This document shows, one piece after another, positions 8,541 to 64,000 of a stretch of DNA of 64,000 bases (the first letter of the stretch is position 1; each line of letters begins with the position of its first letter). The notes under the pieces were generated by a model, which was not told the DNA's origin, did no database searches, and saw only the letters and a list, made by a program, of their open reading frames with translations. Origin of the DNA: Thermoanaerobaculia bacterium (GTDB lineage Bacteria; Acidobacteriota; Thermoanaerobaculia; UBA5066; Gp7-AA6); assembly GCA_035506175.1 (NCBI GenBank), contig DATJPZ010000023.1:31687-95686 (forward strand), given 5' to 3'. Position numbers and translations under genes: made by a program.

Positions 8541-8549
8541 CCAGCCGGC

Positions 8550-13490: not shown

Positions 13491-13493
13491 GGC

Positions 13494-43070: not shown

Positions 43071-43086
43071 CGCGGCGGCGGCGGGC

Positions 43087-43300
<214 letters not shown>

Positions 43301-43370
43301 CAAGAAGACCATTTGGCCTCGGACTCGTGATCTGTCCGTCGGATCATGCAGTCGATGCCGATTCTCGAGA

Positions 43371-45311: not shown

Positions 45312-45457
45312 GCACGACCTCCTTGGCAGGGACAAACGTCTACGTCTCGGCTGCGCAGCGGCCCGTCGATGGTTTCACGAGGCCGGCCGATTCTTCGGGA
45401 GAGAACCGTCGAGCCCCGTTCCCTCTCTCCGGTAGGCCGCGCGGCGGCCCGCTCAAG

Positions 45458-47112: not shown

Positions 47113-47158
47113 GGCTTCAGGGTTGGCCCATCCTAGCAAAGTCCCGAAGCCGCGGCCC

Positions 47159-48814
47159 TCAAGAGGTCTTCGCGGGCGCCGGCGTCGGCTTCGCCGGGGC
47201 ACCCGAGACCGCCGTCGGCTTCTCGTCCTTCGGCGGCTCCTTCGGCAGAGGCTTGCGCGGCAGCATGGCGTCGCGCGTGGCCGCGTCCCACGTGAAGCAC
47301 GCCATGACGACGGCCGCCTGCTGGAGGTCGGCCTTCACGAGGCGCTCGTAGAGATCCATGTTCGTGTGGTGCGTCCGCGTCTCGTACTCGATCTCGTCCT
47401 GGATGAACTGGAATCCCGGAAGGCCGACCTGATCGAACGACTCGTGGTCGGTGCCGCCGGTCGTGTTCATCGTGACGGCCGTCGCGCCGAGGTCGTGCAG
47501 GGGCTTGAGCCACGCCTCGAAGATCGGCACGACGGCGGCGTTCTCCTCGGCGTAGATGCCGCGGATCTTGCCCGTGCCGTTGTCGAGGTTGAAGTACGCG
47601 GCGAGCTTCGCGTGCTCGGGCTTGACCGTCAGCGGCCACTTCTCCTTGCGCCGGTACCAGGGGACGTCCTCTTCTTCCTTCGTCGGCTTCGGGCGCGACG
47701 CGAAGTGCTGATCGACGTAGGCGCGCGACCCGAAGAGTCCCTGCTCCTCCCCGGTCCAGAGGCCGATGCGGATCGTCCGCCGCGGGTGCGCGTCGAGAGC
47801 CTTCAGGATCCGCATGACCTCCATCGCGACGACCGAGCCCGCGCCGTTGTCGGTCGCCCCGGTGCCGCCCTGCCAGGAGTCGAGGTGCGCGCCGACCATG
47901 ACGACCTCGTCCTTCTTGTCGGTCCCCGGGATCTCGGCAATGGTGTTCCACTGCATCTGGTCTTCGTCGATGAACTGCACGCGGACGTCGAGCTCCAGCT
48001 GGACCTCGACCTTGCGGTCGACCAGGCGCGCGATCCGCCCGAAGTGCTCCGACTCCATCTCGAGCGACGGGATCGCCGTCTTCGGCTTCGACATCCGCCA
48101 CTCGCCGCCGCCCTGGACGCCGAACGTGCCGAAGTCGCCGCGGCCGAGGTCGATGATCGCGAGCGGTTTCTCCTCCTCGAAGAACGCGTCGGCCGCCTTG
48201 CGCAGCTCGAAGCGCTTGATGTACTCCTCGCGGTTGTAGCGCGGCGCCCGGCCGGCAGGCTGGTCGTACTGGACGACCTCGGCCAGCGACTTCTCGTCGT
48301 AGCGCGTCAGATCGGGCGTGTCGTGCGGCTTGACCTCGCGGACGTCGCCCCACAGCACGATCTTGCCGGCGACGGTTCCCTTGTACTTGTCGAGATCTTC
48401 TTTGGTCTTCGGATTCACGTGCACGACCGCGGCGTGCACCAGGCCGTTGGTCCCCGGCGTCCACGCCTGGGGCAACGCGAGCAGCTCCGCCTTGTCGGGC
48501 GCCGTCATGCGTACCGCGCAGGCTTCGTAGCGCCACCCGCGGCCGAACGGTCCCCACGACTCGAGATGGGCGTTGGCCAGACCCCACTCCGCGAGCTTCG
48601 ACTTCGTCCACTCGTTGGCTTCCTTCACCTGGGGCGAGCCGGTCAGGCGCGGACCGATCCGGTCCATCAGCTCCGAGGCCGTCTCCATGACCTTCGAGTG
48701 CCGGAATCCCTCCTCGCGGATCTTCGTGACCATGTCGAGGTCCACCCGCTCCTCCGCGGGCGCGGTCGCGACGAGCAGCCCGGTCAGACAGGCCGAGGCA
48801 ATCAGACGCTTCAG
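47159..48814 (-). CDS. Secreted M28-family aminopeptidase; the start is assigned to CTG 48814 (see findings)
   Basis: M28 motifs are VGAHLDSWQGGTGATDNGAGSVVAMEVMR, LWTGEEQGLFGSRAY and GGTDHESF. Manual translation upstream of the track start gives LKRLIASACLTGLLVATAPAEE (a signal peptide) in frame. AAGGAGG lies 6 nt before the CTG. Confidence 0.85.
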   Translation of the reverse strand: MKRLIASACLTGLLVATAPAEERVDLDMVTKIREEGFRHSKVMETASELMDRIGPRLTGSPQVKEANEWTKSKLAEWGLANAHLESWGPFGRGWRYEACAVRMTAPDKAELLALPQAWTPGTNGLVHAAVVHVNPKTKEDLDKYKGTVAGKIVLWGDVREVKPHDTPDLTRYDEKSLAEVVQYDQPAGRAPRYNREEYIKRFELRKAADAFFEEEKPLAIIDLGRGDFGTFGVQGGGEWRMSKPKTAIPSLEMESEHFGRIARLVDRKVEVQLELDVRVQFIDEDQMQWNTIAEIPGTDKKDEVVMVGAHLDSWQGGTGATDNGAGSVVAMEVMRILKALDAHPRRTIRIGLWTGEEQGLFGSRAYVDQHFASRPKPTKEEEDVPWYRRKEKWPLTVKPEHAKLAAYFNLDNGTGKIRGIYAEENAAVVPIFEAWLKPLHDLGATAVTMNTTGGTDHESFDQVGLPGFQFIQDEIEYETRTHHTNMDLYERLVKADLQQAAVVMACFTWDAATRDAMLPRKPLPKEPPKDEKPTAVSGAPAKPTPAPAKTS

Positions 48815-48892: not shown

Positions 48893-51496
48893 TTACCGCA
48901 AGCCCTCCGCGACCAGTAGCTCCGACGAGTAGCGGTGGTGGGTGTAGAGGCAGATCCGGCCGTCGGCCGCGAAGAGCGTCGTTCCGATGCCTCCGCCGGC
49001 GGTCGGCGCCACCGGCGGGATCTCCTTCCAGAGGACGCGCTCTCCGCTCCACGGGTCCAGGCGGTAGAACCGCGCCACGACGACCCCTTTCCGAGGATCG
49101 ACTTCGTCGGCCCCGCGGACGTAGAGCCCTTTCCCGTCCGACGTCCATTGAATCGGCTCCTCGCCCCGCTGGAGGCCTCGAAGCGCCGCGAGCTCCCCGG
49201 CCGCGGTCGGGTAGAGCTGCCACCCCCGGCGCTCGTCCTCGGCGGCGATCCAACGCGCATCCGCCGACAACAACGGCCCGCGGGTCCCCTCGGGCACGAC
49301 GCGCCGGCGCTCGCCGCCGTCGAGGCCCTGCGCCCAGACCGACGGGCGGCGGCCCGCTTCGGCGCCGGCGAAGTAGATCGTCCGCCCGTCCGGCGAGAAC
49401 CCCAGCGGCCCCGGCGCCTCCAGCCCTTTCGTCGGCACGGCGACGGGCTGACCGGCCCCGGTCGGCACGAGGACGAGCCCGCTGTGCGCCGCGTCGAGCA
49501 CGACGAGACCGTTCGGCGAGCTCTGCCCGAGCACCCACTTCCCGTCGCGTGAAAGGACCGCGCCCGCGTACCCGCCGAGAGCGCCCAGGCGCTTGGCGGG
49601 CGAGCCTCCGGTCGTTCCGACGTAAGCCGACACCTCGTCGGCGACGCTGCCTTGAAAGGTGAGGACGTCCCCCGCGGGAGAGACATCCTCGAGGGTGCCG
49701 TCGAACAGGAGCCGGTCCGGCGCGCCGGGGGCGCTCAGGAAGATCTCGTCGCGCGCGGTGAGCAGACCGAGCAGGACGCGCCCGCTCGCCGAGACGTCGT
49801 AGAGCGTGTAGTTGCCGGGAAGAGCGGCGACCAGGCGATCCTCGCCGGCTACGGAAATCGCGCGAAGCTGGACAGTCCCTTCCGCGACCGGCAGGTAGAA
49901 GATCTCGCCGGTCGGCGCCCAGGCGTGTTCCCACCCCGAAACGCCGAGCGGCGTGACGCGTTGCTCGCGGTCCACGACGAACAGGTCCGTTCCCGCGTTC
50001 GTGTAGGCCACGCGGTCGCCCCGGGGAGAGACGCGCGGAAAGTTGATCCAGCGCGGGTGCTCCACGAGCTTCGTTCCCAGCGGGTACTCCAGACGGTAGC
50101 CGCCGTCGACGAAACGGACCGCGGCGAGCTCCTTCCCGTCGGGCGCCCAGTCGGCGTCGCTGACGTTCTCGAGAATCTCCCGGGGCGTCCCGCCGATGAG
50201 GGGCACCTCGGCGAGCGTTCCCAGGAGGAACTCGGCCGAGCGCTCGGCGAGGCCGTTTTCCGGCGACCGCAGCGTCGAGGCCCAGGGCGGCAGCAGCAGG
50301 ATCGCCATGAAGCCGTTGCGCGAGATCGAGAGGAGCTGGGCGGAGGGAAGATTCATGGACCGGCTTTCGGGATGATCGAGACGGACCTCGAAGAGCTCCG
50401 GTCGCCTGCCGTCCCATTGAGCCGAGTAAACGACCGACTCCTCGTTCGGCGTGAATCGCGCCGTCGTGATCCCCGCTCCCCGGGACGTCAGCGTGCGAAA
50501 CCGCGGCGGCGGCGGTGATCCCGAGCGCCCCACGCGCAGGCCGGCGAACAGGACGACGGCCAGGGCGGCGGCCGCTCCGAGCGCCAGGACGCCCGGAGAC
50601 CGCCACCGCGCCACGCCGGCGCCGCCGACAACGGACGCCTCGCCGAGATGGCGCGAGAGCGCCGAGAGATCGCGCGCGAGGTCGCGTGTCGACGCGTAGC
50701 GGTCGCCGGGGTCCTTCGCGAGACAGCGCTCGAGAATCCAGGAAAGCGGCGCGGGCGCCGCCGGATTGACCGTGGAGGCCGGCGCCGGCTCGGCGTGAAG
50801 GATCGCCGAGAGGGTGTCGACGTTCGTTTCGCCGGAGAAGGCGGCCTGGCCCGTCGCCATCTCGTAGAGCACGCTGCCGAAGGAGAACTGGTCCGACCGC
50901 GCGTCCGTCGGCTTGCCGGCGGCCTGCTCGGGCGACATGTAGCGGACGGTGCCTACCACGGACCCGGGTTCGGTATCGACGGTCGCAGTCGCGTCGCCCG
51001 GCGAAGCCCCGGCGGCATAGGCGCGCTTGGCGAGCCCGAAGTCGAGAATCTTGACGACGCCGTCGCGCGTGACCATGACGTTCTCGGGCTTGACGTCCCG
51101 GTGCACGATCCCGGCCTCGTGGGCCTGGGCGAGGCCGTCGGCCACGCGGCCGGCGATCTCGAGGGTCCGCTTCAGAGACAGCGGGCCCGATCGCAGCAGC
51201 TGCCGAAGCGTTCGGCCCTCGACGAGCTCCATCGCGATGTACGACACCGAGCCGGCCGTGCCCACGTCGAAGATCGTCACGATGTTCGGATGGTTCAGGG
51301 CCGAGGCCGCGCGGGCCTCGTGGTCGAAGCGGCGCAGCCGTCCCGGGTCCGCGGCGAAGCCCTCGGGCAGCAGCTTCAGCGCGACGTCGCGCCCGAGCCG
51401 CGTATCGCGCGCGCGATACACCTCGCCCATCCCGCCGGACCCGATGGGGGAAAGCACCTCGTAGGGCCCGAGCCTCGTTCCAGCCGCGAGCGTCAT
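48893..51496 (-). CDS. Transmembrane Hanks-type Ser/Thr kinase with a periplasmic TolB/PD40-like propeller (cassette 1)
   Basis: An ATGA overlap with the upstream FHA gene lies at 51493-51496. Kinase motifs are GSGGMGEVYRARD, HRDVKPENV and DFGLAK. The TM helix is GVLALGAAAALAVVLFAGL. Blades carry WAPDG, SPRGD and FSPDG. Confidence 0.9.
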   Translation of the reverse strand: MTLAAGTRLGPYEVLSPIGSGGMGEVYRARDTRLGRDVALKLLPEGFAADPGRLRRFDHEARAASALNHPNIVTIFDVGTAGSVSYIAMELVEGRTLRQLLRSGPLSLKRTLEIAGRVADGLAQAHEAGIVHRDVKPENVMVTRDGVVKILDFGLAKRAYAAGASPGDATATVDTEPGSVVGTVRYMSPEQAAGKPTDARSDQFSFGSVLYEMATGQAAFSGETNVDTLSAILHAEPAPASTVNPAAPAPLSWILERCLAKDPGDRYASTRDLARDLSALSRHLGEASVVGGAGVARWRSPGVLALGAAAALAVVLFAGLRVGRSGSPPPPRFRTLTSRGAGITTARFTPNEESVVYSAQWDGRRPELFEVRLDHPESRSMNLPSAQLLSISRNGFMAILLLPPWASTLRSPENGLAERSAEFLLGTLAEVPLIGGTPREILENVSDADWAPDGKELAAVRFVDGGYRLEYPLGTKLVEHPRWINFPRVSPRGDRVAYTNAGTDLFVVDREQRVTPLGVSGWEHAWAPTGEIFYLPVAEGTVQLRAISVAGEDRLVAALPGNYTLYDVSASGRVLLGLLTARDEIFLSAPGAPDRLLFDGTLEDVSPAGDVLTFQGSVADEVSAYVGTTGGSPAKRLGALGGYAGAVLSRDGKWVLGQSSPNGLVVLDAAHSGLVLVPTGAGQPVAVPTKGLEAPGPLGFSPDGRTIYFAGAEAGRRPSVWAQGLDGGERRRVVPEGTRGPLLSADARWIAAEDERRGWQLYPTAAGELAALRGLQRGEEPIQWTSDGKGLYVRGADEVDPRKGVVVARFYRLDPWSGERVLWKEIPPVAPTAGGGIGTTLFAADGRICLYTHHRYSSELLVAEGLR

Positions 51497-52170
51497 GACC
51501 GTTCGCGGCGCGCCGGCCTCGAATCGCTGGAGTGATGTGTCGTCTTCGTCGACGAACCCGCGGCGAACCGCCGGAACGTCAGCGGCACCGTCCCGATTCG
51601 GATCGCGTCCCCGTCTTCGAGGGGTACCTCGGCCCGCAGCCTCTTGCCCCGGTGGAACGTGCCGTTCTTGCTGCCCAGGTCCTCGAGCGTCGCCCGTCCG
51701 TCACGGACCACGATCCGCGCATGCCGGCGCGACACGCTGTGGACGTCGATCCAGACGACCGAGTCCTCGCCGCGCCCGAGCACGTTCTCTCCTTGGCCGA
51801 GCGCGATCTCGCGATCGCCCCAGACGAGCCTGAAGACCGAGCGGCGGACCGAACGCGGCGCGGCAGCCGCGGCCTCCCCCGAAAACGCGTACCCGAAGCC
51901 GTGCACCGTCCGAATCCAGCGCGGCCGTCCCGCGTCGTCGCCGATCGCGTCGCGCAGCTCGGTCATCACCCGCGCGAGGTTCCCGTCGGCGACGAAGAGA
52001 CCGGGCCACAGGAGCTCCTGGAGCTCTTCCTTCTTCACCGCGTTCGGGCGGCGCTCGACGAGGACCTCGAGCAGGCGCAGGGCCTTCGGCGACAGGGCGA
52101 CGGACCGCCCCTTCCGAGACAGCTCCCGGGTGCCCGCGTCGAAGACGCAATCGCCGAAACGAACCACCAC
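51493..52170 (-). CDS. Winged-helix (OmpR/PhoB-type) DNA-binding domain fused to an FHA domain (cassette 1 regulator)
   Basis: The wHTH reads LSPKALRLLEVLVERRPNAVKKEELQELLWPGLFVADGNLARVMTELRDAIGDD...IRTVHGFGYAF. The FHA domain reads VLGRGEDSVVWIDVHSVSRRHARIVV...LEDLGSKNGTF...DGDAIRIG. Confidence 0.85.
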   Translation of the reverse strand: MVVRFGDCVFDAGTRELSRKGRSVALSPKALRLLEVLVERRPNAVKKEELQELLWPGLFVADGNLARVMTELRDAIGDDAGRPRWIRTVHGFGYAFSGEAAAAAPRSVRRSVFRLVWGDREIALGQGENVLGRGEDSVVWIDVHSVSRRHARIVVRDGRATLEDLGSKNGTFHRGKRLRAEVPLEDGDAIRIGTVPLTFRRFAAGSSTKTTHHSSDSRPARRERS

Positions 52171-52824: not shown

Positions 52825-53712
52825 ATGATGACGATCGAGTCCACACATCCGCGCCGACTTTCCCGACTTCTCGGACACCTCCGGTCGAGGTCCGCCGTCG
52901 CTCTTCTGGTCTTTGGGACGGTGGCGCCCGTGCTCGCCCAGGCCTTCTCCCCCATCGACTACCCGGGCGCCTCGGCCACGTTCGCCTTCGGGAACAACGA
53001 CCTGGGCGACGTCGTCGGGCGCTGGGTGGACGCCGGCGGCGCCTCGCACGGTTTCCTGCTTCACCACGGCCATTTCACGACGATCGACGCGCCGGGATCG
53101 ACCTTCACGGCGCCGGCCGACGTGAACGACTTCGGCGCCGTCGTCGGCCGCTATCTCGACGCCGACGGCCTGGCCCACGGGTTCCGCTGGGAGGACGGCC
53201 GCTCGATGACCCTCGACTACCCCGGCGCCTCCGAAACGCAGCTGCGCGGCATCGACGATCTCGGCCGTATCACCGGCAACTTCTGGATGGAGGACGGCCA
53301 CGAGCACGGCTTCTACCGGGATCTCGCCGGCTTTCACCAGGTCGACTACCCGAACTCGGACTCGACCGACGTGTGGGACATGACGGTTCTCGGGTGGATG
53401 ATCGGCGACTGGAGCGACGTCGAGGGCAACGTCGACGGCTATCGCCTGAAGAACGGCGTCTTCACGACCCTCGACTACCCCGGCGTCCGCATCACGTCGC
53501 TGCGAGGCATCAACCTCCTGGGCGAGATCGTCGGCGTCTACGAGACGCCCGAGGGCGACGACCACGGCGTGCTCATCGCGGGAGGATCGACCATTTCCTT
53601 CGACTACCCGGGCGGTTTCAACACCTTCGGAAACAAGGTGAACAACCTCGGCCACGTCGTCGGGTTTTACGACGACTCGGACGGCGTCACGCACGGCTTC
53701 GTCTGGAAACGG
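52825..53712 (+). CDS. Secreted six-repeat protein, HAF-like (HGF-motif) extracellular repeat family, paralogue 1; the 3-prime end is unresolved because the formal ORF runs to 55329 without a stop
   Basis: CAGGAGGA precedes ATG 52825, and the signal peptide ends ...ALLVFGTVAPVLAQA. Six units of about 44 aa follow the pattern DYPG..T.A.GIND.G.IVG.Y.D..G..HGF....G.FT.L. Homology to the paralogues ends at ...THGFVWKR (53712). Confidence 0.6.
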
Positions 53713-53775
53713 CGCGCGGGCCACGCGCGTCCCGCGGCGGAATCGGATGGCCGTCGAGAGGCCGGGGCCGACTGG

Positions 53776-56736
53776 TCAGAACCTCACCCCGACGCTGAAG
53801 CGGAAGGTCCGCGGCGGTTGGTAAGCGGCCGGCGTGCCGAAGGAATCGCCGAGCTCGTAATTGACGCCGCGGACCGGCTTTTGGGTGAAGGGGTTGAAGG
53901 GCGCGAGTTTGTCCGAGTCGCCCGACGTCAGAACGGTCGTATCGACCGCGAGGACGCCGTGCTGGTTGAAAAGATTCAGGACCTGGGGCTGGAGGAAGAG
54001 CTCGACGGATTCGAAAACGCGCGCGGTCACGGTCAGCGCCAGATCGGTGCTGGAGATCGACGGCATCCGATAGGCGCCACGAGCCGAAAAGAAGTAGGGA
54101 GTCCCGTTCGGCATCGGACTCGCATAGCCGGGATTCACGACGTAAGGAGTCGGATCGATGATGCCCACGGACTCGTACGGCAGTCCCGATGCGTACGACT
54201 CGAGGATCGACCCGCCGATCTCGCCGAACGAAACGGGAACACTCCCGCCAAACCACGCCCGCACGCGGTTGCGTTGGTCGCCTGGCAGATACCCGGTCGG
54301 GTACGCCCAGCTCGCGCGCTGGTACTCCGGGTACTCGCCGACGTGATCCGGCGCTGCGGACACGTTGTCGTTTTCTCCGATGACGTTACCGGTCAGACGC
54401 GACCATGTGTAGCTGACGCCGGCGAAGGACTGCGGCGAGAAGCGATAGTCGATTCGCGTCTGGACGGCCTCGTAGCGCCTTCGGAGGACCGGCGAGTTGC
54501 CGAGGATCTGCACGTCGAGCGGACCATATTGGGGGCTATCCACCTGCCCCGTCGTCAGATCGATCCGGTCGTCGTAGAAGTTCTGATAGTTGCGATAGAG
54601 ATAGTCGGCCCGGGCCCAACCCTTCGTTCCGAGCGCGACGCCCACGCCGAACGAGTACTCGGTGGCGGTCGGGGAGACGAGGCCGTCGGTCGGCACGACG
54701 CGGTTGACGCCCTGGATTCGAGCGTAGGCCGGCGTCGTCTCGCTCCCGCCCGACTCGAACCACCCCTGCACGGTTGCGAGCGCCTGGGCCGTCGTCTGGA
54801 GCTGGTTCGTCGGGGCATTCGGGTCGCAGTTGATGCACGGTCCGGTGTAGTGCCAGTCGACGATCGACGTCTGCCCCGCCTCGGAGAAGAGCTGCACGAT
54901 GCCCTCGTGCAGCCCCGCGACGTATTTCGCGTACCCGGCGTCGATCAGAAGCGTCCCCTTGCCCAACGCGTCGAACTGCGCCGCCACGCGCGGGCTCCAG
55001 GTTCCCGTCACGGCCACGGACCGCCCCGCGCCGTTCTTCGCGTCGTTGGCGTCGTAGCGCACGCCGAGATTCAACGTGAGCCGGCCGCCGAGCTGCGCGC
55101 GATCGTTGAAGAAGACGGACTGCGTCACGAATCGATCGCCCTGCGACGCCTCGAGGATCGGCCTCCATTCGAGAACGGCCTGGAGGTCACCGCCGTTCGG
55201 CACCACGGGGAACATCTGATTGTCACGGACGATCGAATTGGAATAGAGCACGTAACCGCTCCCCGAGAATGCGTAGTTCGCGAGAAGCGTCTTCTCGAAC
55301 CACTCGTAACCGAGATGCAGCTCGTGTGACCCCAAAGTCTCCGAGGAAACGAGCCAGGACGCCTTCGCGAGCCACCCGGTGTTGCCGTAGTTCTCCGGAT
55401 AGCGTTCGGATCCTGCCGGGACGTTCAACGTGCCTCGATCGGTATCGACGCGCGTGCCGGGCACGAAGGCGGCGTCGGGCGAGCCACTGCCCTCGATTTC
55501 GAACCAGCGTTTCGAGAACTGCGCCTCGACGAAGAGCCGCTCCGACAGGATGCCGGTGTAGTTGGCCGTCAGGATCGAGTGCGGCGACTCGATCGTGTCG
55601 AGCGCGTCGAGGGCGCCCGCCGGAAGGTACTGGCTGTTGATCTCCGTCGGCCTCACGAGCGTGTACGCCGCGACGAGATTGTGCGACGGGGTCACGTTTC
55701 CCGTGAGCTTGCCCTCCGCGCGGCTCTCCTCGAACCGGTGCGTGTACGGAATGAAGAGCGAACCCTGGTCGCCCAGGTCGGCGTCTCCCGGGACGTAGAT
55801 CTCCGTCGAATTGCTGACGTCCTGCCGACGACCCGCCGCGAAGAACCAGATCCGGTCCTTCCAGATCGCTCCCCCGAGCGTCGCCTCGTAGCTCTCGTCG
55901 ACCTGGTCGAGGCGGGGATCGTCGCCCTGGGCTACCTCGAGAGGATTCAACGACCGCCACCCGTCGCTCGTGAAGCTCGTCCGGAAGCTCCCGTGGAACT
56001 GGTTGCCGCCCGAGCGGGTGATGACGTTGACGACGCCGCCCGTGAAGCGCCCGTACTCGGCGGAAATGCTGCCGGTCAGGACCGTGGTCTCCTGGATCGC
56101 GTCCTCGACGTACAGGCTCTGCGGCTGGCCGCGCAGGTTCTCGTTGACGACGGCGCCGTCGACCATGTAGAGACTCTCGAACGACTGGGCTCCGGAGATG
56201 ACGAGCGCCGGGCTCGCCGGGTTCGCGCTGCCGATGTTGCCGCTCGGGCCCGTGGCGTCGACACCGGGAGCCAGCAGCACCGTCGACCGCAACGACCGGT
56301 CGAGCGGCAGCTGGTCGACCAGCGACTGCTTGTACGTGGACGCGACCTGGGTCGTCTCGAGCGGCGTCCCGGCGATCGCGTCCGCGGAGACGGTGACGGA
56401 GGCCTCGACGGACTCTGGCCGCATCGCGACGTCGAGCCGGCCGCCGACCGCGGCGTTCAAGGTGATCGTCTTCTCGATTCCCTGCATCCCCGGCAGCGAG
56501 AACCGGATGACGTAGGCGCCGGGCGGAAGAAAAGGCAGGACGTATTCCCCCGCGGAAGTCGTGCGCGTCTCGCGGCGCCCTTGAAGGCTCGGCGACTCGG
56601 CGCTCACGACCACGGCGGCAAGCTCGGCGCCGCCTTCGATGGACACGCGCCCCGAAAGCGACGACAGGGGAATGCCCTGCGCCAGAACGATCTCCGAAAG
56701 GCACAGGCCCGCCAGACCGGCGAGCGTACGCCTCAC
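53776..56736 (-). CDS. Outer-membrane TonB-dependent-receptor-like protein with an N-terminal CarboxypepD_reg-like domain
   Basis: GTG 56736 overlaps the kinase stop (GTGA at 56733-56736). The signal peptide is VRRTLAGLAGLCLSEIVLAQG. The CarboxypepD_reg-like segment is GRVSIEGG...SAGEYVLPFLPPGAYVIRFSLPG. Plug-like segments are ISGAQSFESLYMVDGAVVNEN and ISAEYGRFTGGVVNVITRSGGNQFHG. The C-terminus RTFRFSVGVRF ends in an aromatic residue. Confidence 0.75.
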   Translation of the reverse strand: MRRTLAGLAGLCLSEIVLAQGIPLSSLSGRVSIEGGAELAAVVVSAESPSLQGRRETRTTSAGEYVLPFLPPGAYVIRFSLPGMQGIEKTITLNAAVGGRLDVAMRPESVEASVTVSADAIAGTPLETTQVASTYKQSLVDQLPLDRSLRSTVLLAPGVDATGPSGNIGSANPASPALVISGAQSFESLYMVDGAVVNENLRGQPQSLYVEDAIQETTVLTGSISAEYGRFTGGVVNVITRSGGNQFHGSFRTSFTSDGWRSLNPLEVAQGDDPRLDQVDESYEATLGGAIWKDRIWFFAAGRRQDVSNSTEIYVPGDADLGDQGSLFIPYTHRFEESRAEGKLTGNVTPSHNLVAAYTLVRPTEINSQYLPAGALDALDTIESPHSILTANYTGILSERLFVEAQFSKRWFEIEGSGSPDAAFVPGTRVDTDRGTLNVPAGSERYPENYGNTGWLAKASWLVSSETLGSHELHLGYEWFEKTLLANYAFSGSGYVLYSNSIVRDNQMFPVVPNGGDLQAVLEWRPILEASQGDRFVTQSVFFNDRAQLGGRLTLNLGVRYDANDAKNGAGRSVAVTGTWSPRVAAQFDALGKGTLLIDAGYAKYVAGLHEGIVQLFSEAGQTSIVDWHYTGPCINCDPNAPTNQLQTTAQALATVQGWFESGGSETTPAYARIQGVNRVVPTDGLVSPTATEYSFGVGVALGTKGWARADYLYRNYQNFYDDRIDLTTGQVDSPQYGPLDVQILGNSPVLRRRYEAVQTRIDYRFSPQSFAGVSYTWSRLTGNVIGENDNVSAAPDHVGEYPEYQRASWAYPTGYLPGDQRNRVRAWFGGSVPVSFGEIGGSILESYASGLPYESVGIIDPTPYVVNPGYASPMPNGTPYFFSARGAYRMPSISSTDLALTVTARVFESVELFLQPQVLNLFNQHGVLAVDTTVLTSGDSDKLAPFNPFTQKPVRGVNYELGDSFGTPAAYQPPRTFRFSVGVRF

Positions 56737-59312
56737 CGCAGCCCCTCGATCAGAAACAGCTCCGACGGGAACCGATAGCGCGTGTACACGATCGTCTTCT
56801 CGTCCGCCGAGATGCGAATCTGGCCCACGCCGCCGCCGGCCGCGGGGTCGAGCTGCGGGATCTCGCGAAAGAGCTCCCGGCGGCCGGTCCACGGGTCGAG
56901 CCGGTAGACGCGCGCCAGCGGAAGATCCAGGCCGACCGCGTCGTCGGCGCCGAGCACGAAGAGCGACCGGCTGTCGGAGGACCACTGGATGGGCTCCTCT
57001 CCCGGATGAAGGCCCGCGATGTCTTTCGCCGCTCCGCCGTCGAGCGGAAAGATCTGATAGCCGTGCCCGCCCGTCAGGGCGCTCGCGTATCGCCCATCCG
57101 GAGACATCTGCCCGCGAAACGTCCCTTCGGGAGTCGCCGCTTTGAGGCCGGTGCCGTCGACGTTGCGCACCCACAGCTGCCGGCCGCGCCCGTCGGCGTT
57201 CCCCATGGCGAAGAGGCGGGTTCCGTCGGCGAAGAAGTGATCGCAGGCCGGCGGATCGGTCCTGGGGAGTTTCCGCGACTCCCCGGGGCCGACCGGCACC
57301 AGCTCGCAGTCGCGCAGCACCCAGCCGCCGTCCGGCGTCACGTCCGTCGCCAGCCCGTCGCCGAGCCGCTTGGCGGGAGAACCGTCGGTCCCGCGCCGAT
57401 AGATGCCGCCGCGCGTCACCCCCTCCTGGAAGACGATGGCGTCGCCGTTCCCGGTCACGGCCACGACGTCCGCCTGATCGAACCAGGACAGGTTCCGAGG
57501 CCTCGACTCCCCCGCCTTCAGCGCGTAGACCTCGGAGTTCTCGGCCACCCGCGAGACGAGCACGCGGCCGTCCGGGGCGACGTCTTGCAGCACGAAATCG
57601 CCCGGAAGCGAGGCGAGAAGGCGTTCGCGGCCGGACAACGTGATCGCGCGAAGCTGCGTCACCGTGTCGTCGAAGACGCTGTACCAGATCTCCTTACCCG
57701 ACGGCGACCAGACGAGCTCGTTGATCTCCCGATCGAGCGAGCGTGGCTTCTCGGGCGGCCGCACCACCGTCAGCGTCGCGACGTCCCGGAACGCGATCCA
57801 GGCGCCGTCGGGCGAAACGTGAGGCCAGTTGATCCAGGGCTCGCATTCGTAAACGGTCGTCCCGATCGGGTATTCGAGGCGCTGCGTCCTGCCGGCGTCC
57901 CGGACCACGGCGAGCGACTTTCCGTCGGGAGACCAGTCGGCGAAGAGGACGCCTTCGAGGAGCTCGCGCGGAGCCCCGCCCGCGAGCGGCACCTGGGCGA
58001 GCGTGCCGAAGAGGTTTCGCGGATCGCGGACCGTCAGCCCCAGGTGCGGGTCTCGCAGCAGGAGCCCGAACGTGTGGCCGAGCAGAACCGCCAGATCCCC
58101 CTGGCGCGAGACGGACAGGATGTCCGCGCGGCCCAGACCGAGCGATCGGGACTCCGGGCTCCCGATGCGGGTCTCGAACAGGTCGAGCGGGGCTCCATCC
58201 CAGGAGGCGCCGTAGACGATCGTCTGGCCGTCCGGCGCGAAGCGCGCCGACCAGATGCCGCCGCGCCGGAACGTCAGCTGCTGGAACCGGAGCTCGAGCG
58301 GAGGCGCCGCTCGCCAGCGCGCCAGGGCCACGCCGAGCGCGACGAGCGCCGCGGCGCCGAGCCCGAGCACCGCCCCGGCTCGGATCCTCCGCTTTCCGAG
58401 CCTCGGCGCCAGATCGATTCCCGACAGCGACACCTCGGTCAGGTGCTGCCGCAGCAGGTTCAGGTCCTGCGCGAGGTCGCGCGTGGCCGCGTAGCGGTCC
58501 TTCGGGTCCTTGGCCATGCAGCGCTCGACGATCCACCGAACCGGCGCGGGAAGCTTCGGGTTGTGCGCCGCGATCGGCTCCGGGTCGTCGTGAAGAATCG
58601 CGGAAAGGCTGTCGACCGTGGTGTTGCGCTGGAACGCGGAGACGCCGGTCGCGAGCTCGTAGAGGACCGTCCCGAACGCGAACTGGTCGGAGCGGTAGTC
58701 GGCCGCCGAGCCCGCCGCCTGCTCCGGCGACATGTAACGCACCGTGCCGATCAGGACCCCGGGCTGCGTCGGCAGCGGAAGCGTCCCCTCCTCCGGCCCG
58801 GCGCCGCGCTCGAGCGGCGAGCGCGTCAGCTTGGCGAGGCCGAAGTCGAGGATCTTCACGATCCCGTCTTTCGTGACCATCACGTTGTCCGGCTTGAAGT
58901 CGCGGTGCACGATGCCGGCCTCGTGGGCGCGGGCGAGCCCCTCCGCCATCTGGACGGCGACGTCGAGGAACTTCCGAAGCGGCAAGCCGCCCGGACGCAG
59001 CATCTGCCGGAGCGTCTCGCCTTCGACGAGCTCCATCGCGATGTAGGAGCCGGATTCGGTCTGACCGATCTCGTAGACCGTCACGATGTTCGGGTGGCTC
59101 AGCGCCGAGACGGCGCGCGCCTCCTGCTCGAAGCGCTTCAGGCGATTCCGATCCTCCGAGAGCGACTCGGCGAGCACCTTGACGGCGACTTCGCGCTTCA
59201 GGCGCGGGTCGCGCGCGCGGTAGACCTCGCCCATGCCCCCGCTGCCCAACGGTCCGACGATCTCGTAAGGACCGAGCCGATCGCCGGGGCGGTGAGCGCC
59301 GAACGCGGTCAC
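56733..59312 (-). CDS. Transmembrane Hanks-type Ser/Thr kinase with a periplasmic TolB/PD40-like propeller (cassette 2)
   Basis: GTG 59312 overlaps the FHA gene stop (GTGA at 59309-59312). Kinase motifs are GSGGMGEVYRARD, HRDFKPDNV and DFGLAK. The TM helix is AVLGLGAAALVALGVALA. Blades carry FAPDG, WSPDG, VSPDG and MSPDG. Confidence 0.9.
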   Translation of the reverse strand: MTAFGAHRPGDRLGPYEIVGPLGSGGMGEVYRARDPRLKREVAVKVLAESLSEDRNRLKRFEQEARAVSALSHPNIVTVYEIGQTESGSYIAMELVEGETLRQMLRPGGLPLRKFLDVAVQMAEGLARAHEAGIVHRDFKPDNVMVTKDGIVKILDFGLAKLTRSPLERGAGPEEGTLPLPTQPGVLIGTVRYMSPEQAAGSAADYRSDQFAFGTVLYELATGVSAFQRNTTVDSLSAILHDDPEPIAAHNPKLPAPVRWIVERCMAKDPKDRYAATRDLAQDLNLLRQHLTEVSLSGIDLAPRLGKRRIRAGAVLGLGAAALVALGVALARWRAAPPLELRFQQLTFRRGGIWSARFAPDGQTIVYGASWDGAPLDLFETRIGSPESRSLGLGRADILSVSRQGDLAVLLGHTFGLLLRDPHLGLTVRDPRNLFGTLAQVPLAGGAPRELLEGVLFADWSPDGKSLAVVRDAGRTQRLEYPIGTTVYECEPWINWPHVSPDGAWIAFRDVATLTVVRPPEKPRSLDREINELVWSPSGKEIWYSVFDDTVTQLRAITLSGRERLLASLPGDFVLQDVAPDGRVLVSRVAENSEVYALKAGESRPRNLSWFDQADVVAVTGNGDAIVFQEGVTRGGIYRRGTDGSPAKRLGDGLATDVTPDGGWVLRDCELVPVGPGESRKLPRTDPPACDHFFADGTRLFAMGNADGRGRQLWVRNVDGTGLKAATPEGTFRGQMSPDGRYASALTGGHGYQIFPLDGGAAKDIAGLHPGEEPIQWSSDSRSLFVLGADDAVGLDLPLARVYRLDPWTGRRELFREIPQLDPAAGGGVGQIRISADEKTIVYTRYRFPSELFLIEGLR

Positions 59313-59950
59313 TGGCTGCGGGCGGTCTGCGTGGAGACGGCGGCGAAGCGGCGCAGGGTCAGGACGGCGGTCCCGATGCGGATTTCGTCGCCGTCGGCGA
59401 GCGGCACGGCGCTCTGCACCGACTCGCCGCGCACGAACGTCCCGTTCTTGCTGCCGAGATCCTCGATCGAGGCTTCGTCGCCGGAAATCACGATCTTCGC
59501 GTGGTGGCGCGAGACGCTGTACAGGTCGATCCACGCCACCGCTTCGCGGTCCCGTCCGAGGATGTTCTCGCCTTCCGACAGCGAGATCTCGCGCCCGTCC
59601 CAGAGGAGCCGGAAGACCGACGGCGTGCGCGGCTCGCCCGAATCGGGCCGCACCGGCGCCTGGAACGCGTAGCCGAACCGCTGCACGGTCCGGATGATCG
59701 TGGGACTCTTCGCGTCGTCGCCGAGCGCCTGGCGCAGGTCCGCGACGAGGTTGGCGAGGTTGGCGTCCGAAACGAACGTGTCGGGCCAGAGCGTCGCGTG
59801 CAGCGCCGACTTCGAGAGCGCCTTCGGCCGGGCCCGCACGAGCGTTTCGAGCAGCTGGAAGACCTTGGGCGGCACCGGAACGACACGCCCGCCGCGAACG
59901 AGCTCGCGCGACTCGGAATCGAGCACGCAATCTTCGAAACGCAGCCGCAT
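59309..59950 (-). CDS. Winged-helix (OmpR/PhoB-type) + FHA regulator (cassette 2)
   Basis: ATG 59950 gives MRLRFEDCVLDSESRELVRGG..., parallel to the cassette 1 N-terminus. The wHTH ends at IIRTVQRFGYAF. The FHA domain reads ILGRDREAVAWIDLYSVSRHHAKIVI...IEDLGSKNGTF...DGDEIRIG. The TTG at 59971 is a less likely start. Confidence 0.85.
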   Translation of the reverse strand: MRLRFEDCVLDSESRELVRGGRVVPVPPKVFQLLETLVRARPKALSKSALHATLWPDTFVSDANLANLVADLRQALGDDAKSPTIIRTVQRFGYAFQAPVRPDSGEPRTPSVFRLLWDGREISLSEGENILGRDREAVAWIDLYSVSRHHAKIVISGDEASIEDLGSKNGTFVRGESVQSAVPLADGDEIRIGTAVLTLRRFAAVSTQTARSQ

Positions 59951-60060
59951 TTCTGGAAGACCTCTCGACAAATCCTATCGCCGGATCACGAGGCTGTTCA
60001 CCCGCTATCGAAAAGGTAGAAGTTCGCTAGGGCGCTTCCCGACGCCTCCGCCGGTTCGCC

Positions 60061-60095
60061 CGCAACGGGTGGCTCAACGGTGGAAGACCGTTGCG
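60061..60095. promoter_or_regulatory. Candidate operator: direct repeat CAACGG(G)TGG x2 (12-nt register) nested in the inverted repeat CGCAACGG / CCGTTGCG
   Basis: The sequence is CGCAACGGGTGGCTCAACGGTGGAAGACCGTTGCG. It lies in the divergent region between the wHTH-FHA gene (start 59950) and HAF-like paralogue 2 (start 60144). Confidence 0.2.
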
Positions 60096-60143
60096 ACTTG
60101 CGTCCTGCCGCCGACGGATCTTCCGGGACCAAAGGAGGTCTCC

Positions 60144-61010
60144 ATGAAGACCACGCTTCGTCTCGCACCCCGCCGCCACCTGCCGATCGCCTTCGCCCTC
60201 GCCTCGACTCTCGCCTTCTCGGGGCTCGCCGCCGCCCAGAGCTACGTCTCGCTCGACTGCCCCGGCGCCGACTTCACGCAGCCCCACGGCATCAACGACC
60301 GCGGCGACATCGTCGGCAACTGCGACGGCGCCTCCCAGCAGGGATTCCTGCTCCACCACGGGGCGTGGACTCCCATCGTCGTTCCCGGCGCCCTGGCCAC
60401 CCGGGCGCTCGGCACCAACAACCGCGGCGACGTCGTCGGCCGCTTCGACGGAACCGACGGGACGAGCCACGGCTACCTCCTGCGCCACGGCGTCTTCACG
60501 ACGCTCGATCCCCCGGGCTCGACCTACACGGCGGCGCGCGACATCGACGACCTCGGACGGATCGCCGGCTTCTACGACGACGCCGACGGCAACGAGCACG
60601 GATTCCTCCTCGAGAACGGCGTCTACAAGACCCTCGACTACCCGGGGTCCCTCGCGACGGACGCCTACGGCAACGACGCCCTGCGGCGGGTCGTGGGCCT
60701 CTACTTCGACTCGGACGGCAACGCGCACGGCTTCCTCTGGAAGAACGGCGCGTGGTCGACGATCGACTACCCCGGCGCGCTGACGAGCGAGGCCAACGGC
60801 ATCAACATCCTCGGCCTGATCGTCGGCGCCTGGGACGACGCGTCCACGGAGCACGGCTTCGTCAAGCGCGGCGGGCACTGGGAGTCCTTCGACTACCCCG
60901 GCGCCGTGGCCACCACGCCCTTCGGGCTCAACACCCTCGGCGAGATCGTCGGCGGCTACCTCGGCGCCGACGGCAACATTCACGGCTTCCTGCGGACCTG
61001 CGGCAACTGA
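60144..61010 (+). CDS. Secreted six-repeat HAF-like (HGF-motif) protein, paralogue 2
   Basis: AAAGGAGG precedes ATG 60144. The signal peptide is ...IAFALASTLAFSGLAAAQ. Six repeats end in QGFLL, HGYLL, HGFLL, HGFLW, HGFVK and HGFLR. Confidence 0.75.
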   Translation: MKTTLRLAPRRHLPIAFALASTLAFSGLAAAQSYVSLDCPGADFTQPHGINDRGDIVGNCDGASQQGFLLHHGAWTPIVVPGALATRALGTNNRGDVVGRFDGTDGTSHGYLLRHGVFTTLDPPGSTYTAARDIDDLGRIAGFYDDADGNEHGFLLENGVYKTLDYPGSLATDAYGNDALRRVVGLYFDSDGNAHGFLWKNGAWSTIDYPGALTSEANGINILGLIVGAWDDASTEHGFVKRGGHWESFDYPGAVATTPFGLNTLGEIVGGYLGADGNIHGFLRTCGN

Positions 61011-61065
61011 ATTGATCGACCTTGCGGACGCCGACACGAAGAGCGGCCCGCTCAAAGGAGACGCC

Positions 61066-61944
61066 ATGAAATTCCCCGGTTCGAAGACCCGCCAGACTCT
61101 CGGCCTCGCCGCCGCTTGGCTTTTCGCGGCGGCGGCCGCCTTCGCCCAGACCTACACGACGCTCGACTATCCGGGCGGCTTCAACACGAACGCGTACTCG
61201 ATCAACGACATCGGCGACATCGTCGGACACTGGGACGACGCCGACGGCAACACGCACGGGTTTCTTCTGCGCCACGGCGAGTATTCGCCGATCGACGTCC
61301 CCGGCGCGCTCTTCACGGCGCCCCGCAGCATCAACAACCTCGGCGTCGTCGCGGGCCGCTACCTGGACGCCGGCGGCGTGCCCCGCGGCTTCGTCCTGAA
61401 GAACGGCGCCTTCACGACGATCGATTTTCCGGGAGCCGTCGACACGCGCGTCCGCTCGATCGACGACCTCGGGCGCCTGACGGGCAACTACCGGAAGGCC
61501 GACGGCGTGGAGCACGGCTTCCTGCGCGACGCGCGCGGCTTTCACACGATCGACTTCCCGGGATCTCTCACGACCGACGCGTGGCAGATCAACGACCTCG
61601 GCGTCATCGTCGGCGACTTCTCGGGAGCCGACGGCCTCGTCCACGGCTTCGTTCTGAAGAACGGCCGATTCAACCAGATCGATCAGCCCGGACCGACCGA
61701 GACGTCGACACGAGGGATCAACCTTCTCGGCACGATCGTCGGCATGTACGAGACGGAAGACGGCAGCGGGTTCGGGCTGATCGTGACGCCTCGGGGCATG
61801 CAGTCTTTCCAGGTGCCGGACGCGGCGGGGTTCAGCGAGGCCTACTCGATCAACCTGCTCGGCGTGATCGTCGGCGACTACGCCGACGCCGACGGGATGT
61901 TCCACGGCTTCGTGCGCACCCCCGGCCACGATCACGATCGCTGA
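61066..61944 (+). CDS. Secreted six-repeat HAF-like (HGF-motif) protein, paralogue 3
   Basis: AAAGGAG precedes ATG 61066. The signal peptide is ...LGLAAAWLFAAAAAFAQ. Repeats follow the pattern DYPGGFNTNAYSINDIGDIVGHWDDADGNTHGFLL... Confidence 0.75.
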   Translation: MKFPGSKTRQTLGLAAAWLFAAAAAFAQTYTTLDYPGGFNTNAYSINDIGDIVGHWDDADGNTHGFLLRHGEYSPIDVPGALFTAPRSINNLGVVAGRYLDAGGVPRGFVLKNGAFTTIDFPGAVDTRVRSIDDLGRLTGNYRKADGVEHGFLRDARGFHTIDFPGSLTTDAWQINDLGVIVGDFSGADGLVHGFVLKNGRFNQIDQPGPTETSTRGINLLGTIVGMYETEDGSGFGLIVTPRGMQSFQVPDAAGFSEAYSINLLGVIVGDYADADGMFHGFVRTPGHDHDR

Positions 61945-62125: not shown

Positions 62126-62248
62126 GTTTCGCGGCGACTTTCCGCCTTTTCGTCATGAGGAGTGCCGAATTGTCGCAATCCCCGGGATGGGACCACGGTC
62201 GAGCGGCGAGAACCGGGTGGCCCGACACGGCCGTTTGTCGGACAATAA

Positions 62249-62262
62249 GCGCCCCGTGAACG
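62249..62262 (+). repeat. Copy 2 of the exact 14-nt direct repeat GCGCCCCGTGAACG
   Basis: See copy 1. This copy spans the candidate start GTG 62256. Confidence 0.5.
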
Positions 62263-63413
62263 CGCGCACTCGCCGGCCTTCGCTCGTCGGCCTCGCTCTC
62301 CTCGCGTCGGCGTTCGCCGCCGCGCCGCAAGACGCGGGTCCCGGCTTCGTCCTCCAGGGTGAGGGCGGCCTCGTCACGGCGTTCGCCCTCGACCCGACCA
62401 CGCCTTCGACGATCTACGCGTCGACGGCGCGAGGCCTCTACAAGACGACCGACGCCGGCGCCTCCTGGCGGCGGCTCGGCGCCGGCCTGCAGCAGCACGC
62501 CCTTCTGGCGATCGCGGTCGATCCGTCCACGCCCTCGAACCTCTACGCGACGACCGACAAGGGCGGCGTCTACCGGAGCCGCGACGGCGGCGAACGGTGG
62601 CAGGAGGCCAACACGGGAATCGGCGCGCGGTATGTCGGCTCCATCGCCGTCGACCCGCATCGAGCCGGCGGCGTCTACGCCGGGGCGGAGGGCGGCCGCG
62701 TGTTTCGCAGCGACGACGGCGGCGGAAGCTGGCGGGAGCTCACGCCGCCGACAACGCACGTGGCCGTCACGGTGATCGTCGTCGACCCCCTGACCCCCGA
62801 CCGCCTCTACGCGGGGACCAACAGCGAGGGCGTGTTCTTCAGCGCCGATGGCGGCACGACGTGGGCGCGCCCGACCGGACGCCTGAGCCGCGGGACCGTG
62901 TGGAACCTGACGTTCGACCCATCCAACGGCGAGATGTTCGCCGGAACCCACGACGGTCTCTTCCGCAGCTCGGATCACGGCGTCACGTGGTCGCCCGCCA
63001 ACGGCGGGCTGCGCAGCTGGAACGTTCTCTCGATCGCGATGGATCCGTCGTCGCCGCAGACGATGTACGCGGGCACCGCGGCGGCGATCTACAAGTCGAC
63101 CGACCGCGGACGATCCTGGACGGAGCTCAAGAACGATCTCTACGTCACCGCGCTCGCGATCGACCCGCGGTCGACCTCGACGCTTTACGCGGCCACGCAC
63201 CTCGGGGTCATCAAGAGCGAGAACGCCGGCGCTGCCTGGAAGCCCCTCCGCATGGCCCCTTCGCTCGACGCCGCTGCCGCCGGATCGGGCGGGCACGAGT
63301 CGACCGCGACGTCGCACCTGCCCCGGATTCCGCAGAAGGCCGCGCCGCAGACCGCTCCTTCCCTGCGCACGCTGCCCGTCCAGACGCCACCGGCGGCAGC
63401 GCCCGCGCCCTGA
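62256..63413 (+). CDS. Secreted BNR/Asp-box (Ycf48-like) beta-propeller protein with a Pro/Ala-rich tail
   Basis: GTG 62256 gives VNARTRRPSLVGLALLASAFAAAPQ. Asp-boxes are TTDAGASWR, SRDGGERWQ, SDDGGGSWR, SADGGTTWA, SSDHGVTWS, STDRGRSWT and SENAGAAWK. Confidence 0.75.
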   Translation: MNARTRRPSLVGLALLASAFAAAPQDAGPGFVLQGEGGLVTAFALDPTTPSTIYASTARGLYKTTDAGASWRRLGAGLQQHALLAIAVDPSTPSNLYATTDKGGVYRSRDGGERWQEANTGIGARYVGSIAVDPHRAGGVYAGAEGGRVFRSDDGGGSWRELTPPTTHVAVTVIVVDPLTPDRLYAGTNSEGVFFSADGGTTWARPTGRLSRGTVWNLTFDPSNGEMFAGTHDGLFRSSDHGVTWSPANGGLRSWNVLSIAMDPSSPQTMYAGTAAAIYKSTDRGRSWTELKNDLYVTALAIDPRSTSTLYAATHLGVIKSENAGAAWKPLRMAPSLDAAAAGSGGHESTATSHLPRIPQKAAPQTAPSLRTLPVQTPPAAAPAP

Positions 63414-63513
63414 CCGCCGAACGATTTCCTCGGGCGGCGCCGACCGGGCAATTCACCGCCCCCCGGCGCCGTCGGCGACCTCGTGGGGGAGCACGACGGA
63501 AAGGCGTTCTCGC

Positions 63514-64000
63514 TCAGTCGACGAGAAACAGCGTCAGGGCGAACCGCGCCTCCGGCTCGATCCACTGCTCGTGGCAGCGGAAGCCGCCGCGCTCGACGAC
63601 GTCCACGATCTCGTCGGCGTGGTACTTGTACGAGCTCTCGGTCCAGATGGCCTCCCCCGCCGCGAACGGCACCTCGCAGTCGGCGCGCGGGATTCGGACG
63701 GTCTGCTCGCGCCGCGAAACCAGATGCATCTCGACGCGCCGGTGGCGGACATTCCAGACCGCCCGATGGTCGAACGCGCCGAGGTCGAAGTCAGCCAGCA
63801 GGTCGTTGTTGATCCGGGCGAGAAGGTTCTTGTTGAAGGCAGCCGTCACGCCGAGCGGGTCGTCGTAGGCGAGCAGGAGCTCGCTCTCCGACTTCACCAG
63901 GTCGGCGCCGAGAAGGAGCCCGTCGCCCGGACGCAGGGAGGCGCGGATCCGATCGAGGAACTCGCGCGCCGCGGGCGGATCGAAGTTGCCGATGTTCGAG
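63514..64000 (-). CDS. egtD: C-terminal part of an EgtD-like SAM-dependent histidine N-alpha-methyltransferase (Methyltransf_33); the 5-prime end lies beyond the window
   Basis: ...RPGDGLLLGADLVKSESELLLAYDDPLGVTAAFNKNLLARINNDLLADFDLGAFDHRAVWNVRHRRVEMHLVS...FAAGEAIWTESSYKY matches the EgtD family pattern. The frame stays open to base 64000. Confidence 0.6.
   Translation of the reverse strand, partial: SNIGNFDPPAAREFLDRIRASLRPGDGLLLGADLVKSESELLLAYDDPLGVTAAFNKNLLARINNDLLADFDLGAFDHRAVWNVRHRRVEMHLVSRREQTVRIPRADCEVPFAAGEAIWTESSYKYHADEIVDVVERGGFRCHEQWIEPEARFALTLFLVD

Follow-up and report, generated by a model that had tools for sequence, protein, structure and literature searches.

What does a Hanks-type Ser/Thr kinase do in one operon with a phosphothreonine-reading DNA-binding protein and an outer-membrane transporter? 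The question is raised by three overlapping genes, g1, g2 and g3, in a 64,000-nucleotide stretch (hereafter the window) of contig DATJPZ010000023.1 from a Thermoanaerobaculia bacterium. In this soil Acidobacteriota genome, the three predicted products are a transcription factor with a winged helix-turn-helix (wHTH) and a forkhead-associated (FHA) domain, a membrane Ser/Thr kinase and an Oar-type transporter. By sequence comparison, the conserved core of the triad is the g1/g2 pair, which belongs to a very large, uncharacterized signaling family, and the transporter appears to be a genuine, frequent but optional third partner. The genes, in order of transcription, are as follows.

59309..59950, minus strand: g1, 213 residues, wHTH-FHA transcription factor (open reading frame and translation)
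56733..59312, minus strand: g2, 859 residues, bitopic Hanks-type Ser/Thr kinase (open reading frame)
53776..56736, minus strand: g3, 986 residues, outer-membrane protein resembling Oar-subclass TonB-dependent transporters

All three reading frames are uninterrupted on the minus strand, running from 59950 to 59309, from 59312 to 56733 and from 56736 to 53776. We consider them real genes because their codon-position GC content, 0.87–0.91 at the third position (GC3) against 0.48–0.50 at the second (GC2), follows the pattern typical at the 70% GC of the genome and window. The initial annotation had described two GTGA overlaps joining the genes, and direct reading of the junctions (...CAGTGACC... 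and ...CGGTGAGG...) bears this out, with a GTG start over a TGA stop at both.

59309..59312, minus strand: GTGA shared by g1 stop and g2 start (direct sequence reading)
56733..56736, minus strand: GTGA shared by g2 stop and g3 start (direct sequence reading)

The 4-nucleotide regulator/kinase overlap is also present in P0005, P0014, P0057, P0125, P0127 and L144, and the 4-nucleotide kinase/transporter overlap is found at six loci (the window, P0016, P0127, L144, L004 and L007). A sigma-70 consensus scan of 53500-60200 detected no promoter-like site between g1, g2 and g3, and terminator-like sites in the same interval occur at chance level, with no excess between the triad genes. The missing internal promoter and terminator signals are compatible with co-transcription, for which they are weak evidence.

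A Pfam hidden Markov model scan agrees with the initial annotation for every domain of the three products. In g1, it delimits two domains, which are followed by a short tail.

59663..59887, minus strand: winged helix of g1, residues 22-96 (Pfam PF00486 Trans_reg_C, 54.9 bits)
59372..59563, minus strand: FHA domain of g1, residues 130-193 (Pfam PF00498, 62.5 bits)
59324..59335, minus strand: C-terminal S-T-Q-T motif of g1, residues 206-209, candidate phospho-acceptor in a disordered tail

The winged helix is of the OmpR/PhoB type, and its sequence matches in the Protein Data Bank (PDB) are the DNA-binding domains of PcoR, CadC, SaeR and PhoP. The nearest solved structure to the FHA domain, again by PDB sequence search, is the FHA domain of EmbR (2fez, E=1.7e-12). 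The phosphothreonine-binding residues of g1, G132, R133, S147, H150 and N169, are invariant in an alignment of g1 with close relatives (alignment A1). The AlphaFold2 (AF2) model of g1, with a mean predicted local distance difference test score (pLDDT) of 83, consists of two folded domains with no helical domain between them; the gap spans only about 30 residues, and Pfam gave no match to BTAD in g1 at E ≤ 0.01. Residues 204-213 have pLDDT values below 50. Within this tail T207 is invariant in alignment A1, and a strict ST.[TS] motif occurs in the C-terminal tail of at least 51 of 99 distinct wHTH-FHA family members, making the S-T-x-T tail a plausible candidate phospho-acceptor. GarA and OdhI of Actinobacteria are small FHA proteins as well, and their disordered tail likewise has a conserved Thr-rich motif; by analogy the g1 tail, once phosphorylated, could dock on the FHA domain of g1 itself or of a partner. 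Their motif is N-terminal and their output is enzyme inhibition, whereas the g1 tail is C-terminal and its output is a DNA-binding domain.

The kinase g2 is divided by the membrane into a catalytic and a sensory half.

58479..59267, minus strand: cytoplasmic kinase domain of g2, residues 16-278 (Pfam Pkinase, 159.5 bits)
58323..58379, minus strand: transmembrane helix of g2, residues 312-330 (Kyte-Doolittle maximum 2.24 over 19 residues)
56736..58322, minus strand: periplasmic ectodomain of g2, residues 331-859, tandem beta-propellers (AF2, Foldseek and weak Pfam matches)

The catalytic domain carries the full Hanks set of P-loop, beta3 lysine, HRD..N and DFG, with SPE replacing APE; the motifs GSGGMGEVY, VAVKVL, HRDFKPDN and DFGLAK start at residues 23, 42, 136 and 156. 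The P-loop, VAVK, HRD and DFG motifs are almost invariant among 36 homologs of g2 (alignment A2, which also served as input for the AF2 model of the ectodomain). The segment at 312-330 is the sole hydrophobic one and splits the kinase from a folded 529-residue C-terminal part. The modeled ectodomain is all-beta (pLDDT 89.8, predicted template modeling score 0.88), and its top Foldseek matches in the PDB are double-propeller proteins (2ymu, tricorn protease 1k32, Aip1 1nr0 and LRP6). This tandem-propeller fold agrees with the faint Pfam signals, which comprise weak PD40 matches in g2 itself and faint PD40/Tricorn_N matches in related loci. An anti-phage kinase reading of g2 (PD-T4-6, MADS or BREX PglW) was rejected, as the PADLOC matches span residues 8-387, essentially the catalytic domain; PADLOC gave no match to g1 or g3.

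Both halves of the pair belong to families of unusual size. The regulator family comprises more than 7,400 clusters at E<1e-5, mostly from Acidobacteriota, and its top matches are all two-domain proteins of about 213 residues; the kinase ectodomain family likewise exceeds 7,400 clusters and is joined in nearly every case to Pkinase, giving proteins of about 865 residues. A regulator scan of one genome per species yielded 574 confirmed matches, and the loci that we compared are the best 80 of these 574, almost all from Acidobacteriota (Thermoanaerobaculia and Vicinamibacteria) and often several per genome. Neighborhoods were counted over 87 regulator genes in the 80 genome loci (1.2 Mb); P0005, P0016 and P0127 were read from gene tables only. 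A related kinase lies within 4 kb of 62 of the 87 regulator genes, in several gene orders: directly downstream on the same strand for 33, and upstream, divergent or convergent for 29 more. Because the linkage persists through changed gene order, it points to a functional pair, and g1 and g2 are very probably cognate partners. The initial annotation had linked the kinase to the FHA regulator by analogy with mycobacteria, and both the strong conservation of the pair and the match to the EmbR FHA domain uphold that link.

EmbR of Mycobacterium tuberculosis, an FHA-containing regulator of the SARP type, is a substrate of the receptor Ser/Thr kinase PknH. Like EmbR, g1 combines an N-terminal OmpR-type winged helix with a C-terminal FHA domain, and its gene adjoins that of a bitopic Hanks kinase with an extracytoplasmic sensor, a linkage known here from the genes. 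The differences are considerable: g1 has no BTAD and is 213 residues long against 388 in EmbR, the sensor of g2 takes the form of a tandem beta-propeller, an outer-membrane transporter can be part of the operon in this diderm host, and the family has expanded so that a genome has several members. With comparative evidence and precedent together, the step from kinase to FHA regulator is well founded. We found no open-access description of the pair or the triad, which is weak evidence of absence and agrees with the view of the initial annotation that the coupled triad is not a described system.

The third gene encodes a protein with the layout of an Oar-subclass transporter.

56674..56736, minus strand: signal peptide of g3, residues 1-21, MRRTLAGLAGLCLSEIVLAQG (hydrophobic N-terminus, Kyte-Doolittle 1.6; predicted cleavage site)
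56422..56661, minus strand: CarboxypepD_reg N-terminal extension of g3, residues 26-105 (Pfam PF13620, 52.8 bits)
56383..56409, minus strand: candidate TonB box VEASVTVSA of g3, residues 110-118, between the N-terminal extension and the plug (by eye)
56035..56361, minus strand: plug of g3, residues 126-234 (Pfam PF07715, 27.6 bits against a cutoff of 23.9)
53779..56034, minus strand: beta-barrel of g3, residues 235-986 (Pfam PF25183 OMP_b-brl_4, 87.7 bits)

The barrel, which ends in ...FRFSVGVRF, matches PF25183 and not the 22-stranded TonB_dep_Rec barrel, PF00593; with the plug above its cutoff, this supports, at the level of sequence profiles, the plug and barrel claimed for g3 earlier. PF00593 is matched by kinase-adjacent TonB-dependent receptors in L008, L011 and beside P0127. 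The candidate TonB box has counterparts in L144 and L145 (VEESVTVSA and VEESVIVSG) and is positioned like the TonB box of Oar. No solved structure matched g3 in a sequence search, and no Ton genes were identified beside it. Judged by architecture, g3 resembles Oar of Myxococcus xanthus in its signal peptide, CarboxypepD_reg extension, plug and large barrel, and in the TonB-box-like motif straight after the extension (PMC6434023). It differs from the Oar subclass in matching PF25183 instead of PF00593, and from Oar in its genetic coupling to a kinase and a regulator. The Oar-type architecture accounts for 28% of 34,893 surveyed TonB-dependent transporters, its CarboxypepD_reg extension is distinct from the STN domain of signaling transducers, and Oar itself is required for secretion of a protease (PMC6434023). 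We found no Pfam match to the STN domain (PF07660) in g3 or in its L004, L008 and L011 orthologs, and g3 relatives without a kinase nearby retain CarboxypepD_reg. The initial annotation had observed that this domain sits where FecA-type transducers carry their signaling extension; because the domain is generic to the Oar class and kept by kinase-less relatives, its position is no sign of a signaling role.

How regularly, then, does a transporter accompany the pair? At the window's own locus, syntenic relatives share the order M49 peptidase, EgtB/EgtD, divergent secreted proteins, regulator, kinase, optional transporter and M28 peptidase, followed by a protein of about 187 residues, a Cu-amine-oxidase-like protein and an S9 peptidase. 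At this position, the window, P0005, P0016 and L008 have the transporter, and L001 and the P0014, P0033 and P0057 loci (L081, L082 and L083) do not. It directly follows the kinase in 4 of 16 evaluable genome loci, plus L011. Away from this locus, L004 and L007 hold stand-alone three-gene operons with 4-nucleotide overlaps, closed by a convergent gene and non-syntenic with the window; the order is permuted to regulator, transporter, kinase in L044 and L095, and a regulator is followed by a transporter in L088 and L066. The loci contain 13 g3-like genes in their 1.2 Mb, and eight of the 13 abut a pair gene on the same strand. The expectation that the triad would be conserved outside this genome thus holds in part: it recurs in other genomes, but most pairs, including a paralogous pair in the window (g1b/g2b), have no transporter.

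The presence of a transporter tracks the ectodomain. It adjoins eight of nine kinases whose ectodomain is of the g2 type (at least 54% identical to that of g2), namely those of the window, P0124, P0127, P0129, P0130/L144, P0131/L145, P0132/L143 and L095. L081 and L083, which are 71-77% identical to g1 and to the g2 kinase domain (76-77% for the kinase domain alone), have ectodomains of 43-44% identity and no transporter. Conversely, the L095 regulator is nearer the B paralog, yet its ectodomain is 64% and its transporter 65% identical to those of the triad; a 900-nucleotide gap separates transporter and kinase there. This suggests that the modules are mosaic and that ectodomains, with the transporter, have been exchanged between paralogous pairs. 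From the transporter's side, g3 orthologs of 65-67% identity adjoin kinases, and wherever the flanks of a relative at least 62% identical are readable, a regulator or kinase gene is the neighbor. These comparisons support a functional link of the periplasmic sensor to the transporter, and they would fit contact between the two and sensing of the transported substrate equally well. Two stronger statements were rejected. Transporter-linked kinases do not form a single ectodomain clade; they are scattered over the tree and enriched in one clade, and some have transporter-less sisters (L004/L007 against L005; L008 against L081). Nor are g3-like transporters dedicated to kinases: at 35-47% identity, the flanks of most relatives lack both a kinase and a regulator.

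Upstream of g1, we identified a candidate cis element.

60004..60029, minus strand: triple direct repeat TAGC-N7-TACC-N7-TAGC, TAGCgaacttcTACCttttcgaTAGC, 11-bp phasing, candidate wHTH site

The repeat lies 54-80 nucleotides upstream of the ATG of g1 and occurs once in the window, where chance predicts 0 matches. It belongs to a block conserved among orthologous intergenic regions that have otherwise diverged; the sole exact copy among the loci is at 1519-1544 of L144. Direct repeats with 11-bp phasing are the usual layout of OmpR/PhoB-type sites, and it is this layout that suggests autoregulation of g1 through the candidate site. By eye, a promoter-like TGAACA-N17-TAGGAT follows the repeat upstream of g1; it falls below the threshold of the sigma-70 scan.

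The triad shares the window with a second pair and with genes for secreted proteins.

51493..52170, minus strand: g1b, wHTH-FHA paralog, 225 residues, 54% identical to g1
48893..51496, minus strand: g2b, kinase-propeller paralog, 867 residues, ATGA overlap with g1b
60144..61944, plus strand: two secreted HAF-repeat proteins (60144-61010 and 61066-61944), divergent from g1 (NCBIfam TIGR02913)

The g1b/g2b pair, which the initial annotation had passed over, is about 7 kb from the triad, and downstream of g2b lies an M28 peptidase gene and no transporter. Divergent neighbors of both g1 and g1b encode secreted HAF-repeat or CarboxypepD_reg proteins, and HAF/BNR genes hold the same divergent position in L001, L008 and L083. 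The next gene beyond g3 is a convergent HAF-repeat gene. Around the triad, this peptidase-rich window encodes M28, S9 and M49 peptidases together with an amino-acid permease.

Several further features of these loci deserve mention. A plus-strand HAF-repeat gene from 52825 has no in-frame stop before 55329 and runs antisense through the 3' half of g3; two of its paralogs stop about ten codons past the last HGF repeat, and this gene has probably lost its stop or undergone a frameshift near 53730-53800. Long-range synteny around the pair (window 40009-48745 and 62187-63999; L081-L083, L001 and L008) takes in, on one flank, an arginine decarboxylase, a glutamate-receptor-like ligand-gated channel, an S9 peptidase, a Cu-amine-oxidase-like protein and an M28 peptidase, and, on the other, BNR/HAF-repeat secreted proteins and the ergothioneine genes EgtD/EgtB. 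Regulator genes are usually divergent from genes for secreted repeat proteins (Vgb_lyase, HAF-repeat, BNR/Sortilin), and Vgb_lyase-family beta-propeller proteins recur beside pairs (L004 7111-9874, minus strand; L083 18666-20021, plus strand). The window encodes four Hanks kinases in 64 kb: the third (4257-6857, minus strand) joins a kinase to a propeller with no regulator gene adjoining, and the fourth (8553-11654, minus strand) is joined to AAA_16 and TPR. A 922-residue protein (14564-17329, minus strand) with PD40 repeats and no other recognized domain may be a propeller-type sensor. The metagenome contig L116 packs seven kinase genes, several of them with propellers, and a single g3-like transporter into 16 kb (1-15910), an extreme case of the family expanding locally.

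What arrangement would account for these observations? Our working model builds on the gene structure, domains, sensor fold class, conserved pairing and neighborhoods described above. In it, an EmbR/PknH-like pair controls the transporter encoded with it and probably senses the substrate of that transporter, much as in a polysaccharide utilization locus (PUL); we regard the model as a whole as about evenly balanced between being right and being wrong. The inner-membrane kinase g2 would bind a ligand through its periplasmic tandem beta-propeller, and upon activation the kinase, g1 or both would acquire phosphothreonine, with the disordered S-T-x-T tail of g1 as a putative acceptor. The FHA domain of g1 would read the phosphothreonine, and the winged helix would then alter its binding to the phased repeats upstream of its own operon, the presumed DNA site. 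Co-transcribed with the pair, g3 would be the regulated cargo, probably carrying across the outer membrane, presumably inward, the same substance that the propeller senses in the periplasm. That ligand may be a peptide, because the surroundings are peptidase-rich. In Bacteroides PULs with hybrid two-component sensors, periplasmic beta-propellers sense the imported substrate, a CarboxypepD_reg-type transporter adjoins an inner-membrane propeller regulator and degradative enzymes are encoded nearby. The triad differs in that a Ser/Thr kinase and a separate FHA regulator stand in place of a His kinase/receiver/AraC fusion and in that the nearby enzymes are peptidases, not glycoside hydrolases; no SusD-like gene was found beside g3 or in any listed neighborhood.

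Several observations weigh against this model. All relatives come from uncultured metagenome-assembled genomes, and part of the recurrence of the triad may reflect shared ancestry, not independent events. P0125/L142 has a close g2-type kinase (68% ectodomain identity) and no transporter, and most g3 relatives of 35-47% identity have no kinase nearby, so the class at large is not dedicated to this role. The window holds no second copy of the repeat, including before g1b, the HAF-repeat genes and g3, and the sigma-70 consensus scan of 53500-60200 returned no promoter at its threshold. Direct protein contact would predict the co-inheritance of ectodomain and transporter equally well, and Oar exports a protease rather than importing a nutrient, so that g3 could run outward (PMC6434023). 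Contact is the core of the relay that the initial annotation had put forward, in which the N-terminal extension and plug of substrate-bound g3 would touch the propellers and switch the kinase on, by analogy with FecA/FecR/FecI. In both systems, an outer-membrane TonB-dependent protein is co-encoded with an inner-membrane signaling protein and a transcription regulator. The 4-nucleotide translational coupling of kinase and transporter at six loci would suit such a relay, as would the L004 and L007 operons, which hold only the three genes, the transporter adjoining eight of nine g2-type ectodomains, and the closer dependence of transporter presence on ectodomain type than on kinase domain or regulator (L081, L083 and L095). 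Against it, g3 has no STN domain, the N-terminal extension is of a generic kind, found in 28% of transporters and distinct from the signaling domain (PMC6434023), and relatives without a nearby kinase retain that extension. Gene order varies, up to the 900-nucleotide gap of L095. No evidence specific to the relay emerged, and most pairs have no adjacent transporter, among them g1b/g2b, three syntenic loci and sister lineages (L005 against L004/L007; L081 against L008). In contrast to FecA/FecR/FecI, the inner-membrane component here is a kinase, the transporter is dispensable for most pairs, and the Pfam scan found no FecR-like anti-sigma or extracytoplasmic function sigma factor in the operon or among its immediate neighbors, which together encode only wHTH-FHA, kinase, transporter, HAF-repeat and CarboxypepD_reg proteins. 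We therefore see an outer-membrane-to-kinase relay as possible and less supported than the PUL-like model; the specific contact mechanism is unlikely. It is a little less likely still that the triad represents a third kind of cell-surface signaling, in which an Oar-class transporter would report its occupancy by contact with propellers to the kinase and, through phosphothreonine, to the wHTH-FHA protein.

If g3 instead worked outward like Myxococcus Oar, the pair might control outer-membrane secretion of the nearby HAF-repeat, BNR and Vgb_lyase-like proteins and peptidases. The repeated divergence of the regulator gene from genes for secreted repeat and propeller proteins and the secreted peptidases downstream on the same strand lend this some appeal, but the same secreted neighbors occur in transporter-less loci (L081-L083), and the Oar architecture is very common, with most members presumed importers; we rate secretion as very unlikely. 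The transporter might also have no functional link to the pair, being an abundant acidobacterial TonB-dependent gene inserted by chance behind it and inherited along. About three quarters of evaluable pairs have no transporter, its presence varies within a single syntenic locus, and the density of g3-like genes in the loci (1.07 per 100 kb) is not obviously above our rough expectation for such genomes. Against chance, adjacency is found again at non-syntenic loci, also with gene order permuted and reading frames overlapping; eight of 13 g3-like genes abut a co-oriented pair gene; and a regulator or kinase gene adjoins each g3 ortholog that is at least 62% identical and has readable flanks. We consider an unlinked passenger quite unlikely.

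The kinase-regulator-transporter triad would thus be EmbR/PknH-type signaling in a new form. Acidobacteriota rank with the most abundant bacteria of soil, and to our knowledge almost nothing is known of how they sense nutrients. The g1/g2 pair is much simpler than EmbR/PknH, with a short regulator, a predicted DNA site and a conserved Thr tail, and is amenable to testing in vitro. The triad also allows one to ask whether a kinase can replace sigma/anti-sigma pairs in outer-membrane-linked regulation; were the contact reading true, a relay from outer membrane to DNA built wholly of eukaryote-like phospho-signaling parts would be widespread in Acidobacteriota. The recurrent coupling to a transporter offers a handle on the cargo of the very numerous acidobacterial Oar-class proteins, and the pair of wHTH-FHA regulator and receptor kinase would be a major transcription-control module of these bacteria, comparable to two-component systems but based on phosphothreonine.

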